In this document: one piece after another, positions 2,738-62,747 of the stretch
Numbering within the stretch: the stretch's first letter is position 1
Layout of the letters: every line of letters starts with the position of its first letter
NCBI RefSeq assembly: GCF_003334765.1
Contig: NZ_QOWT01000014.1
DNA length: 64,000 bases
Direction: 5' to 3' (one strand)
Origin: Escherichia coli
GTDB lineage: Bacteria; Pseudomonadota; Gammaproteobacteria; Enterobacterales; Enterobacteriaceae
Program-made: the position numbers and the translations under genes
Notes under the pieces: model-generated
The model's database searches: none
The model's input: the letters and a program-made list of their open reading frames with translations, nothing else
Told to the model about the DNA's origin: nothing

Positions 2738-2977
2738 TGTAAAGCATCCACAATAGAAGAAGGATGCCGCAGGTTTCATCAATATTACGCGATGATGAGA
2801 ACCAGATGCGACGTTGGCCGGCAGGTCTTCGGGCTTGGAGGGGTATCTAAGATACTAAGAGATGATGACTTCCCACCGAATGGCAGTGTCCGCATAACGC
2901 AATCATCGCACCTTTCCTTACCGCTGCGCGTCAGCTCCAGATTCGCACTGGATTCCCTATTAACTCACAGGACCGGC
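2738..2977 (-). promoter_or_regulatory. cobalamin (adenosylcobalamin) riboswitch in the btuB 5' leader
   Basis: Minus-strand sequence from 2977 reads GCCGGTCCTGTGAGTTAATAGGGAATCCAGTGCGAATCTGGAGCTGACGCGCAGCGGTAAGGAAAGGTGCG... through to the btuB ATG, matching the ~240 nt btuB leader as I recall it. Confidence 0.85.
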
Positions 2978-3105
2978 AAGTGGATGCTACAGGTTGTAAC
3001 AAGTTACTGTCCAGACGTAGCTCACAAATAGGAATTCATCAAGATCTGGACATCTGATGAGCAATCCCTACAATCGCCGCGTACTTTAATTTTTCAGGAT
3101 ACATC

Positions 3106-7981: not shown

Positions 7982-8098
7982 GAAACGGAGCGGCACCTCT
8001 TTTAACCCTTGAAGTCACTGCCCGTTTCGAGAGTTTCTCAACTCGAATAACTAAAGCCAACGTGAACTTTTGCGGATCTCCAGGATCCGCTTTTTTTT
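7982..8098 (+). ncRNA. oxyS: OxyS small regulatory RNA with intrinsic terminator
   Basis: Sequence GAAACGGAGCGGCACCTCTTTTAACCCTTGAAGTCACTGCCCGTTTCGAGAGTTTCTCAACTCGAATAACTAAAGCCAACGTGAACTTTTGCGGATCTCCAGGATCCGC followed by T8 matches OxyS as I recall it; divergent from oxyR. Confidence 0.9.
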
Positions 8099-11528: not shown

Positions 11529-12680
11529 ATGAAAAACAAATTACCGCCATTTATCGAGATTTACCGCGCTCTGATTGCCACACCTTCAATAAGCGCCACG
11601 GAAGAGGCACTCGATCAAAGCAATGCAGATTTAATCACTCTGCTGGCGGACTGGTTTAAAGATTTGGGCTTCAATGTGGAAGTGCAGCCTGTTCCAGGAA
11701 CTCGCAACAAATTCAATATGCTGGCAAGTATCGGACAGGGGGCTGGCGGCTTGTTGCTGGCGGGGCATACCGATACGGTGCCATTTGATGACGGTCGCTG
11801 GACGCGCGATCCGTTTACACTGACGGAGCATGACGGCAAGCTTTACGGCTTAGGCACCGCCGACATGAAAGGCTTTTTTGCGTTTATCCTTGATGCGCTA
11901 CGCGATGTCGACGTCACGAAACTGAAAAAACCGCTCTACATTCTGGCGACTGCTGATGAAGAAACCAGTATGGCCGGAGCGCGTTATTTTGCCGAAACTA
12001 CCGCCCTGCGCCCGGATTGCGCCATCATTGGCGAACCGACGTCACTACAACCGGTACGCGCACATAAAGGTCATATCTCTAACGCCATCCGTATTCAGGG
12101 CCAGTCGGGGCACTCCAGCGATCCAGCACGCGGAGTTAACGCTATCGAACTAATGCACGACGCCATCGGGCATATTTTGCAATTGCGCGATAACCTGAAA
12201 GAACGTTATCACTACGAAGCGTTTACCGTGCCATACCCTACGCTCAACCTCGGGCATATTCACGGTGGCGACGCTTCTAACCGTATTTGCGCTTGCTGTG
12301 AGTTGCATATGGATATTCGTCCGCTGCCTGGCATGACACTCAATGAACTTAATGGTTTGCTCAACGATGCATTGGCTCCGGTGAGCGAACGCTGGCCGGG
12401 TCGTCTGACGGTCGACGAGCTGCATCCGCCGATCCCTGGCTATGAATGCCCACCGAATCATCAACTGGTTGAAGTGGTTGAGAAATTGCTCGGAGCAAAA
12501 ACCGAAGTGGTGAACTACTGTACCGAAGCGCCGTTTATTCAAACGTTATGCCCGACGCTGGTGTTGGGGCCTGGCTCAATTAATCAGGCTCATCAACCTG
12601 ATGAATATCTGGAAACACGGTTTATCAAGCCCACCCGCGAACTGATAACCCAGGTAATTCACCATTTTTGCTGGCATTAA
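11529..12680 (+). CDS. argE: acetylornithine deacetylase
   Basis: Recognised ArgE; start at [15 protein letters not shown] gives 383 aa. The ORF-track start at 11490 lies inside the ARG boxes. Confidence 0.93.
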
Positions 12681-12907
12681 AACGTAGGCCGGATAAGGCG
12701 CTCGCGCCGCATCCGGCGCTGTTGCCAAACTCCAGTGCCGCAATAATGTCGGATGCGATGCTTGCGCATCTTATCCGACCTACAGTGACTCAAACGATGC
12801 CCAACCGTAGGCCGGATAAGGCGCTCGCGCCGCATCCGGCACTGTTGCCAAACTCCAGTGCCGCAATAATGTCGGATGCGATACTTGCGCATCTTATCCG
12901 ACCTACA
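12681..12907. repeat. tandem duplication (about 123 bp unit, 2 copies) of a BIME made of two inverted REP palindromes
   Basis: Unit GTAGGCCGGATAAGGCGCTCGCGCCGCATCCGGC...GCCGCAATAATGTCGGATGCGATGCTTGCGCATCTTATCCGACCTACA occurs twice (from about 12684 and 12807), with only single-base differences visible. Confidence 0.9.
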
Positions 12908-17740: not shown

Positions 17741-17825
17741 TGCCGGATGCGACGCTTGACGCGTCTTATCCGGCCTACAGATCGCGGCGGTAGGCTGGAT
17801 AAGGCGTTTACGCCACATCCGGCAA
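17741..17825. repeat. REP pair (BIME) downstream of eptC
   Basis: TGCCGGATGCGACGCTTGACGCGTCTTATCCGGCCTACA and inverted GTAGGCTGGATAAGGCGTTTACGCCACATCCGGCA. Confidence 0.85.
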
Positions 17826-28321: not shown

Positions 28322-28366
28322 CCTACTCCAAACTCCCGGCTTGTCCGGGAGTTTGAACGCAAAATT

Positions 28367-28466
28367 GCCTGATGCGCTACGCTTATCAGGCCTACGCAAT
28401 CTCTGCAATATATTGAATTTGCGTGCTTTTGTAGGCCGGATAAGGCGTTCACTCCGCATCCGGCAC
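28367..28466. repeat. RIP-type BIME: two inverted REP palindromes flanking a central AT-rich (IHF-site-like) core
   Basis: GCCTGATGCGCTACGCTTATCAGGCCTAC - GCAATCTCTGCAATATATTGAATTTGCGTGC - TTTTGTAGGCCGGATAAGGCGTTCACTCCGCATCCGGCA. Confidence 0.85.
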
Positions 28467-28595
28467 TCTGTGCCAGTAATCTGAAACTCCCACGTTGTTC
28501 AGGAATTTTTTATCCGCTTCTGGACATTTTCTCTACAGAACAATCGTTAGCCCGGAAGGTCGAATCTGTGACTCTTATTTTCACGGACGAACCAG

Positions 28596-57419: not shown

Positions 57420-57583
57420 CGCCCGACTCTCTTATGTTGTGTTGTGATGAGCAAAGCGTGCCAGAAGGTTAACCAAACATTAAAGAATAAAAAAAGATTG
57501 GCTATAACTTGCGGGTATATGTTGAGGGATTAAAAAGGCGGAAGAAATCCGCCTCATATTGCTGACAAAGTGCGCTTTGTCCA

Positions 57584-57683
57584 TGCCGGATGCGGCGCGA
57601 ACGCCTTATCCGGCCTACAAAAGTTTGCAAATTCAATAAATTGCAGAATTCATGTAGGCCTGATAAGCGAAGCGCATCAGGCA
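57584..57683. repeat. RIP-type BIME (third copy in window, opposite orientation)
   Basis: TGCCGGATGCGGCGCGAACGCCTTATCCGGCCTACAA - AAGTTTGCAAATTCAATAAATTGCAGAATTCATG - TAGGCCTGATAAGCGAAGCGCATCAGGCA. Confidence 0.85.
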
Positions 57684-57738
57684 TTTTTGCTTCTGTCATC
57701 GGTTTCAGGGTAAAGGAATCTGCCTTTTTCCGAAATCA

Positions 57739-62662: not shown

Positions 62663-62747
62663 GCAGGCAGGATAAGGCGTTTACGCCGCATCCGGCATTT
62701 GAGCAGGATGCCTGATGCGACGCTGATAGCGTCTTATCAGGCCTACA
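62663..62747. repeat. REP pair (BIME) downstream of cpxA
   Basis: GCAGGCAGGATAAGGCGTTTACGCCGCATCCGGCA and inverted GCCTGATGCGACGCTGATAGCGTCTTATCAGGCCTACA. Confidence 0.85.

Follow-up and report, generated by a model that had tools for sequence, protein, structure and literature searches.

Three intergenic elements in the window, by which we mean the whole 64-kb stretch of Escherichia coli DNA analysed here, are on their sequence members of the BIME-1 (RIP, RIB) family of E. coli, a family already known and described in 1991–1993. The best explanation, and in our judgment a highly probable one, is that BIME-1 copies represent a small non-coding mobile element inserted at terminator hairpins and not locally evolved regulatory sites. 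Across the family, a locus-specific hairpin, usually an intrinsic terminator, is directly duplicated just outside the outer motifs of the element at 27–31 of 56 independent sites.

Three BIME-1 copies and their family

A first-pass annotation had described three copies of a roughly 100-bp RIP-type element at separate intergenic sites. The copies are real: when read directly, each interval could be dissected into a 29-nt Y REP, a 34–35-nt L linker and an inverted 35-nt Z REP, and the coordinates given earlier turned out to be accurate, at most one base off the limits of the parts. Copy C is inverted, as had been claimed (Y 57654–57682, L 57619–57653 and Z1 57584–57618, all on the - strand). A length of about 100 bp applies to the REP–linker–REP core, but not to the conserved unit of the family, which measures ~152 nt. 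The gene names attached to the sites were right: gldA>yijF for copy A, metJ>yiiX for copy B and pfkA>sbp for copy C. These sites had also been called operon boundaries; all three do follow a stop codon and precede the next gene in the same direction, but are better termed 3′ UTRs at terminators. There is one unit per locus, 29–56 nt from the stop codon of gldA, metJ or pfkA, and all three copies have the same orientation relative to transcription. The window is E. coli K-12 sequence, a 1-kb probe from it being 100% identical to MG1655-type records. It is the reverse complement of NC_000913.3 (MG1655 coordinate = 4166253 - window coordinate), so that A, B and C fall at MG1655 4137788–4137886, 4127951–4128048 and 4108571–4108669, and the RefSeq table of NC_000913.3 has no repeat_region features along the stretch. 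The parts of the three copies and their immediate flanks are listed below in window coordinates, each with its strand and the basis of its assignment.

A, 28330..28354, + strand: left copy of the duplicated gldA terminator hairpin (AAACTCCCGGCTTGTCCGGGAGTTT), without T-run; folds at -19.2 kcal/mol
A, 28355..28366, + strand: remnant of the 5′ external motif (GAACGCAAAATT); ortholog alignment and family consensus
A, 28367..28395, + strand: Y-type REP (GCCTGATGCGCTACGCTTATCAGGCCTAC); direct reading and three-way alignment
A, 28396..28430, + strand: L linker, 35 nt, including TGCAATATATTGAATTTGC; alignment and block search
A, 28406..28418, - strand: IHF-consensus-like 13-mer ATTCAATATATTG, one mismatch; consensus scan
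A, 28431..28465, + strand: Z1-type REP, inverted relative to Y; repeat search and dissection
A, 28466..28483, + strand: remnant of the 3′ external motif (CTCTGTGCCAGTAATCTG); family consensus
A, 28484..28511, + strand: right hairpin copy and T-run (AAACTCCCACGTTGTTCAGGAATTTTTT); sequence comparison with orthologs
B, 38185..38198, + strand: left arm of the metJ intrinsic terminator and part of its loop (GAGCGGCGCGGAGT); comparison with the empty allele
B, 38205..38233, + strand: Y-type REP; dissection
B, 38234..38267, + strand: L linker, 34 nt; dissection
B, 38243..38255, - strand: IHF-consensus-like 13-mer ATTCAATAAATTG; consensus scan
B, 38268..38302, + strand: Z1-type REP; dissection
B, 38303..38331, + strand: 3′ external motif (TAAACAACGAGCACGTTGTCTGCGACCCA), including a small hairpin ACAACGagcaCGTTGT; 20/30 to the family consensus
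B, 38332..38340, + strand: right arm and T-run of the metJ terminator (CCGCTTTTT); comparison with the empty allele
C, 57713..57725, - strand: degenerate left copy of the pfkA terminator hairpin (AGGCAGATTCCTT); flank comparison
C, 57683..57707, - strand: 5′ external motif (TGAAACCGATGACAGAAGCAAAAAT); 19/25 to the family consensus, 24/25 kept in E. albertii
C, 57654..57682, - strand: Y-type REP; dissection
C, 57619..57653, - strand: L linker, 35 nt; dissection
C, 57631..57643, + strand: IHF-consensus-like 13-mer ATTCAATAAATTG; consensus scan
C, 57584..57618, - strand: Z1-type REP; dissection
C, 57555..57583, - strand: 3′ external motif (TGGACAAAGCGCACTTTGTCAGCAATATG); 28/30 to the family consensus
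C, 57532..57554, - strand: pfkA intrinsic terminator (AGGCGGATTTCTTCCGCCTTTTT), right hairpin copy; direct reading, folds at -13.7 kcal/mol

Pairwise alignment, which had been named as a check on the first reading, bore it out. The identity exceeds generic REP similarity, since the likeness continues through the AT-rich linker. Mean column identity in the three-way alignment is 88% over ~120 columns, and a repeat search found 107 nt shared by A and C at 88% and 85 nt shared by B and C at 86%. Part by part, pairs of copies agree at 28–29 of 29 positions in Y, 33–34 of 35 in Z1 and 25–28 of 35 in L, which corresponds to 94–100% identity for the REPs and 71–80% for the linkers. All linkers contain an invariant 19-nt block, TGCAATWTATTGAATTTGC, whose three exact occurrences in the 64-kb window all fall in the cores of A, B and C. 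REPs are abundant, and at least four other REP loci are present in the window, so one might ask whether generic REP similarity combined with chance in an AT-rich spacer could produce such a picture. The probability of this is negligible: the chance expectation for the block in the window is 0.06 matches even with three mismatches permitted, the remaining REP pairs of the window are separated by unrelated linkers of 10–11 nt (GATCGCGGCG, TTTGAGCAGGA), and over 130 copies from two genera have this linker.

BIME-1 has been defined by a y and a z1 REP, present as a single copy and separated by a long conserved linker L that often has an IHF site (Ton-Hoang 2012, PMC3333891; Nunvar 2010, PMC2817692). 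BIME-1 is the name in the Gilson/Bachellier nomenclature. The name RIB goes back to Boccard and Prentki 1993 and RIP to Oppenheim et al. 1993, as cited in passages of Nunvar 2010 (PMC2817692) and Delihas 2011 (PMC3184786). In all three copies we found Y as GCCTGATGCG..TTATCAGGCCTAC and Z as GTAGGCCGGATAAGGCGTTCACGCCGCATCCGGCA, inverted to each other. The loop of Z is GTTCAC, which we take to mark the Z1 subtype, versus GTTTAC in the BIME-2-like REPs of the window. The long conserved linker is present at A, B and C as well as in the copies from other genomes, and each of the three is a single extragenic copy at the 3′ end of a transcription unit.

The consensus of ~130 aligned copies of the family reads 5′-GAGACTGATGACAAACGCAAAATT, Y, L, Z1, TGAACAAAGCGCACTTTGTCAGCAATCTGA-3′ and spans ~152 nt; in its alignment form, the 5′ external part ahead of Y is TGAGnCTGATGACAAACGCAAAATT, with TGAACAAAGCGCACTTTGTCAGCAATCTGA again beyond Z1. 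The published size of BIME-1 is ~140 bp (Chiapello 2005). Outside the REPs, the unit carries imperfect 15-nt terminal inverted repeats (GAGACTGATGACAAA versus the complement of TTTGTCAGCAATCTGA, 12/15). Both outer motifs are present in C, the 3′ motif alone in B, and remnants of both in A. The full ~152-nt unit is represented in the window by copy C only (57555–57707). The tail that follows Z1 at B recurs after Z1 in the glyA, uvrB-yvcK and tkt copies.

A search for further genomic copies, likewise suggested at the outset, found them in abundance. When all 5,426 complete E. coli genomes were queried with a 48-nt core (E ≤ 1), matches occurred at a median of 17 places per genome (range 3–33), counts that represent a lower bound. 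An exact-pattern scan for the linker followed by GTAGG, with one genome per species, yielded at least 120 stretches. Among the matches listed, the linker adjoins a REP in E. coli, E. albertii, E. whittamii, two further Escherichia species and three Pseudocitrobacter genomes. True elements were also among the matches listed for tiny or MAG contigs of Desulfosporosinus, Alkalicoccobacillus, Bacteroides and Collinsella; these look like Escherichia contamination. Three matches in cyanobacterial or Thiohalobacter contigs lack REPs and were discarded as chance hits.

Copies of the family favor a particular genomic setting. Among 102 classifiable copies, 54 are located between convergent genes, 47 between co-directional genes and one between divergent genes, so that 101 of them sit 3′ of at least one gene, and promoter regions are not their setting. 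With respect to transcription, the co-directional copies are split into 29 forward and 18 reverse. Given this weak bias, the shared orientation of the three window copies is probably due to chance.

Terminator hairpins duplicated around the element

To assess duplication, we compared the left and right flanks of the same copy, taking mismatched flanks from other loci as the control; the set comprised 78 single copies at 56 distinct sites. Flank repeats scored above the 99th percentile of the control at 27 of the 56 sites and above the 95th at 31, and about half of the sites had no clear duplication. Most of the flank repeats (26 of 33) fold at -5 kcal/mol or better. They stop ~24 nt before Y and resume ~29–31 nt after Z1, where a T-run often comes after the right copy. 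Perfect duplications occur in Pseudocitrobacter and E. whittamii. The duplicated hairpin includes the A/T extensions of its stem, with the T-run lost upstream and kept downstream. The length of the target duplication appears to be defined by structure and ranges from 17 to 36 nt.

Alleles that differ by the element display the same arrangement. In the aspC-gloC region, O157:H7 has one GCCCGCTGAAAAGCGGGCT followed by a T-run, and K-12 has the hairpin, the ~152-nt element and the hairpin again; this site is filled in 2811 of the 5426 genomes. Between narP and ccmH, IAI39 has one TAGCCCGATGGCATCACCATCGGGCC, and K-12 strain C600 has two copies of it flanking a ~152-nt element; this site is filled in 1505 of the 5426 genomes. 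Judged by these flanks and alleles, BIME-1 inserts at the terminator hairpin and duplicates all of it. Insertion would take place at the foot of the intrinsic-terminator hairpin, with the entire hairpin being duplicated in the process. As a pattern in the DNA, the signature of hairpin duplication itself is solid.

Hairpin pairs also flank copies A and C of the window. At A, the hairpin at 28330–28354 is a direct repeat of 28484–28508, and the pair is found in E. albertii, E. whittamii and Escherichia sp. E1V33 as well. The right hairpin of A is mutated in K-12 (..CAGGAATTTTTT) and forms an intact intrinsic terminator (..CGGGAGTTTTTT) in the other three. The 5′ external motif of A is 11 nt shorter than in the E. 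whittamii ortholog. At C, the hairpin repeat is clearer in E. albertii, as seen from the comparison of AGGCAGATTTCTTTAGCCT with AGGCGGATTTCTTCCGCCT. The pfkA terminator at 57532..57554 was missed by a consensus terminator scan; its hairpin is also present in the fold of the entire pfkA 3′ UTR.

Copies A and C are, as far as their distribution tells, old and nearly fixed in E. coli. At a cover of at least 80%, site A was found in 4589 and site C in 5312 of the 5426 E. coli genomes. Both have orthologs in E. albertii, where their Y and L are 94–100% identical, versus 87–93% for the mostly coding flanks. When synthetic empty-site sequences of A and C served as queries, all the matches listed were filled alleles, hit in split form. 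This suggests that empty alleles of the two sites are rare or absent, although the ranking of matches could hide divergent ones. In ~15% of genomes, the position of site A is taken by an unrelated repeat that lacks both REPs and the L linker.

Copy B differs from the other two and, from the comparison of alleles, is best described as an atypical, 5′-truncated copy inside the metJ terminator. Site B is filled in 2715 of the 5426 genomes. The empty allele, carried by O157:H7 and the urinary isolate 81009 among others, is 124 bp shorter and has a clean terminator, AAAAGAGCGGCgcggagttaaccaGCCGCTTTTTT. In K-12, copy B separates the two arms of the metJ terminator and has neither the 5′ motif nor a hairpin duplication. 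The filled allele was also found in E. whittamii, and filled and empty alleles both occur on divergent yiiX haplotypes. An outgroup search for metJ-yiiX based on exact MetJ look-ups returned only filled or empty E. coli-like alleles with diverse yiiX haplotypes.

Collectively, the family has several features of a MITE: terminal inverted repeats, a non-coding sequence, direct repeats at 27–31 of 56 sites, and filled and empty alleles at three loci. Its target duplication is atypical for a MITE in being of variable length and equal to a whole hairpin. It also does not fit the standard model of REP movement, since the RAYT or IS200-type mechanism makes no target duplication; the literature on REP mobility proposes IS200-type chemistry of exactly this kind. 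In addition, REPs have been described in a review as lacking MITE signatures (Delihas 2011, PMC3184786). Duplication of a flanking terminator hairpin is not mentioned in the recent papers on REP and BIME mobility that the analysis covered. That BIME-1 is a MITE-like element which shares its terminal inverted repeats with a boxC-like repeat, targets intrinsic-terminator hairpins and duplicates them whole is offered tentatively: we would lean against the joint proposition that this has been read correctly and is also absent from the older BIME literature.

If the MITE-like reading holds, integration might occur at both feet of an extruded hairpin or cruciform; alternatively, the duplication might arise by template switching at a hairpin-stalled fork. 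Under the same reading, insertion would be nearly neutral because a functional terminator is regenerated downstream. Should hairpin duplication indeed be absent from the older literature, it would provide a concrete, testable signature of BIME-1 movement. It would then also explain how the element comes to be located at 3′ ends without breaking termination, a question left open by the RAYT model.

IHF, RNA structure and alternative explanations

The three elements had been proposed to act as IHF or gyrase sites or as insulators, and the presence of an IHF consensus in their cores had been put forward as a check. The outcome was mixed. None of the three cores has an exact match to the IHF consensus WATCAANNNNTTR, but ATTCAATAWATTG, one mismatch away from it, occurs at the equivalent position in A, B and C. 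One-mismatch matches are common by chance (58 across the window versus 47.6 expected), so a single match is not significant and the consensus scan alone proves nothing about IHF. The case for IHF would instead be built on the same position in every copy together with the published footprints of the family. That BIME-1 binds IHF is stated in passages of several papers that cite such footprints (Ton-Hoang 2012, PMC3333891; Nunvar 2010, PMC2817692; Delihas 2011, PMC3184786). The gyrase and insulator part of the proposal was not supported for this subtype. A published genome-wide map shows enrichment of gyrase cleavage sites in BIME-2 and their slight depletion at IHF sites (Sutormin 2019, PMC6379681). 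The suggestion suits BIME-2, not BIME-1.

At the RNA level, the predicted structures of the elements reach -42 to -44 kcal/mol with z-scores of -4.4 to -4.9, and element C lies between the pfkA stop codon and the pfkA terminator. A promoter scan found no promoter-like sites within or beside the three elements. The Rfam family RF02751 (ES036, CssrF), which has a gathering score of 37.6, matched at C with 48.2 bits (57620–57661, + strand) and at B with 39.6 bits (38226–38267, - strand); a match to the linker of A (- strand) had 34.8 bits, below that score. The ES036 consensus, AAAUUUGUGCAAAUUCAAUAAAUUGCAGGAAAUACGUAGGCCU, equals the L linker together with the beginning of the Y REP. It differs from BIME-1 in being an sRNA label on an RNA-seq signal that covers 43 nt of a ~152-nt repeat, and our analysis yielded no evidence of an independent gene.

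How do these observations bear on what the elements are? They could be host-domesticated architectural sites, where IHF and the REPs organize the nucleoid, recruit gyrase or insulate from supercoiling, and where this function keeps them in place. Such a role would agree with the IHF binding reported for the family, with the conservation of A and C between E. coli and E. albertii, which equals or exceeds that of mostly coding flanks, and with a passage of a review according to which a BIME blocked supercoil diffusion in a synthetic cassette (PMC6907758). However, only 2715 of 5426 genomes carry copy B, 2811 carry the aspC copy and 1505 the narP copy, and ~15% of genomes have the unrelated repeat at the position of A. 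BIME-1 is, moreover, mostly strain-variable, with 71% of its length in 'loops' (Chiapello 2005), and gyrase cleavage maps to BIME-2, with IHF sites slightly depleted (Sutormin 2019, PMC6379681). We consider architectural sites an unlikely explanation. Since many copies are dispensable across strains, the IHF site can be regarded as part of the element's own biology. By analogy with other IHF-dependent transposable elements, it most likely serves the element, any benefit to the host being secondary.

An explanation at the RNA level is possible, if doubtful: the element would be a 3′ UTR module whose REP–REP hairpin stabilizes the upstream mRNA or attenuates read-through into yijF, yiiX and sbp, with the IHF site being incidental. 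All three copies lie 29–56 nt past a stop codon in the same orientation to transcription, C lies between stop codon and terminator, the predicted RNA structures have z-scores of -4.4 to -4.9, and REPs have been described as 3′-end protectors and attenuators (Ton-Hoang 2012, PMC3333891; Dar and Sorek 2018, PMC6061677). Yet the orientation of the family is weakly biased (29 forward versus 18 reverse), convergent genes flank over half of the copies, and an RNA role leaves the conservation of the AT-rich linker unexplained. It is very improbable that the cores are sRNA genes of the ES036 family, even though the model matches the linker plus GTAGGCCT at C and B, and to a lesser degree at A, and although ES-numbered transcripts were found by RNA-seq in intergenic regions of MG1655 (Rau 2015, PMC4676190). 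The 43-nt model amounts to the linker's palindromic centre, its matches run antisense to the neighbouring genes with no promoter-like site nearby in the scan, the sequence is the core of a multi-copy mobile element, and the source study reported no function for ES036 (Rau 2015, PMC4676190). We read the ES036 matches in the window as repeat cores, not as genes.

Insertion of a mobile element at terminator hairpins remains the explanation we favor, and it leaves room for effects on both RNA and DNA. The gldA and pfkA transcripts would read through the element and end at the regenerated downstream terminator, which would make the element part of the 3′ UTR. In the RNA, the two REPs may pair into a stable hairpin (about -42 kcal/mol) or fold separately; by analogy with the published behavior of REPs, the paired form could block 3′-to-5′ exonucleases or attenuate read-through. 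In the DNA, IHF bound to L would be expected to bend the linker, so that the two REPs come close to each other.

In practical terms, the three copies themselves amount to the re-identification of a known repeat and say nothing new about E. coli K-12. For annotation, the three intergenic regions can be labeled as BIME-1 and need not be targets in promoter or sRNA searches, and ES036 matches can be treated as repeat cores.

Relation to known repeat systems

The closest known system is BIME-1/RIP/RIB itself. The shared features are a Y REP and an inverted Z1 REP, a single copy, a long L with an IHF consensus, an extragenic location at 3′ ends, and presence or absence of the whole unit among isolates. 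Nothing essential differs, except that A and B lack part of the outer motifs. BIME-2 and atypical BIMEs belong to the same REP superfamily and have REPs in alternating orientation; examples in the window are located at 12680–12907, 17741–17824 and 62663–62747. These BIMEs combine Y with Z2 REPs in tandem arrays; their linkers are short and variable and contain neither the L motif nor an IHF site, and they are preferred targets of gyrase cleavage. In contrast, A, B and C are single-copy units with a long L and do not have the makeup of BIME-2.

REPIN/RAYT (TnpA-REP) systems resemble BIME-1 in having an inverted REP doublet which can fold into a single hairpin and has been proposed to be non-autonomous and mobilized in trans. 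Their Y1 (IS200/IS605-type) transposition proceeds without target duplication, whereas BIME-1 is associated with the duplication of a long hairpin and has extra terminal inverted repeats. Also, the REPs on either side of the RAYT gene of E. coli are of the Y and Z2 types and not of the Z1 type (Nunvar 2010, PMC2817692).

Another similar system is represented by the Correia/NEMIS elements, the MITEs of Neisseria. Like BIME-1, they are ~100–160 bp long and non-coding, have terminal inverted repeats and an internal IHF-binding site, are intergenic and co-transcribed, and form long RNA hairpins (Delihas 2011, PMC3184786). There is no sequence relationship between the two, and they differ in what is duplicated. 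Correia elements duplicate a TA dinucleotide, whereas BIME-1 appears to duplicate a hairpin of 17–36 nt.

Terminator hairpins flanking BIME-1

Full-length BIME-1 units (a Y REP, an L linker and an inverted Z1 REP) are flanked on either side by direct copies of a locus-specific terminator hairpin of 17-36 nt. Empty alleles carry a single copy of the hairpin, whereas in filled alleles it is duplicated around BIME-1. The duplication was seen at aspC-gloC (sequence stretches L139/L138), at narP-ccmH (L141/L140) and, among the matches listed, at about half of the 56 sites compared in stretches L008-L127. Moreover, perfect hairpin duplications were observed at BIME-1 in Pseudocitrobacter, E. whittamii and Escherichia sp. 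E1V33, and this perfection suggests that BIME-1 inserted recently in these three.

Genuine BIME-1 copies are also present in contigs assigned to Desulfosporosinus sp. OT (262 nt long), to Alkalicoccobacillus porphyridii (720 nt long) and to Bacteroides and Collinsella MAGs (L023, L024, L079, L080). It is likely that these represent Escherichia contamination or misbinning.

Haplotypes at metJ-yiiX and other elements of the window

Next to the metJ-yiiX copy, the yiiX gene (38359-38967) is unusually variable, with 91-100% identity to K-12 among E. coli-like genomes. When this interval was compared with stretches L002-L004 and L128-L137, filled and empty metJ-yiiX alleles were each found scattered across divergent yiiX haplotypes, a distribution that suggests recombination around this site.

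The window contains several other REP loci. Within each of the 123-nt units at ppc-argE, a long spacer accompanies one Z-type and one Y-like REP; the two units form a BIME-2-like or atypical BIME. The REP pair at yiiM-cpxA reaches 78.6 bits with Rfam naRNA4 (RF02564), whose gathering score is 59.5. Four further Rfam matches at the gathering level bear no relation to the BIME-1 copies.

Other REP loci and Rfam matches in the window
2803-2992, - strand, cobalamin riboswitch (Rfam)
7982-8091, + strand, OxyS sRNA (Rfam)
12680-12907, tandem pair of 123-nt units sharing 97% identity, placed between ppc and argE by coordinates
17741-17824, Y REP, 10-nt linker and Z2 REP
39247-39299, - strand, L31 ribosomal-protein leader (Rfam)
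43911-43968, + strand, ClpQY (hslVU) promoter element (Rfam)
50543-50577, degenerate single REP upstream of glpX, beginning 4 nt past the stop codon of glpK
62663-62747, Z2 REP, 11-nt linker and Y REP between convergent yiiM and cpxA

BIME-1 compared with tandem arrays and a boxC-like repeat

Although BIME-1 has been described as single-copy, tandem arrays with the L linker were found outside E. coli. In Escherichia sp. MOD1-EC7003 a 107-nt unit is present 8 times in a row (L124, 2667-3524), and the array of a Pseudocitrobacter MAG holds 4.1 copies of an 82-nt unit (L043, 2044-2376).

At the gldA/yijF site, Y-L-Z1 is replaced in about 15% of E. coli genomes by a G-rich boxC-like repeat of about 182 nt (containing CCCCTCGCCCTTTCAGGGAGAGGG), bounded by the same hairpin pair (window 28330-28511; L142, 256-437; L144, 120-300). 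This repeat is dispersed, occupying a median of 6 places per genome. In K-12, the copy at ygfF-gcvP, with termini GAGATTGCTAACAAAC and CTTTGTCATCTGAC, adjoins a terminator. BIME-1 and the boxC-like repeat have the same terminal inverted repeats, but differ in their cargo.
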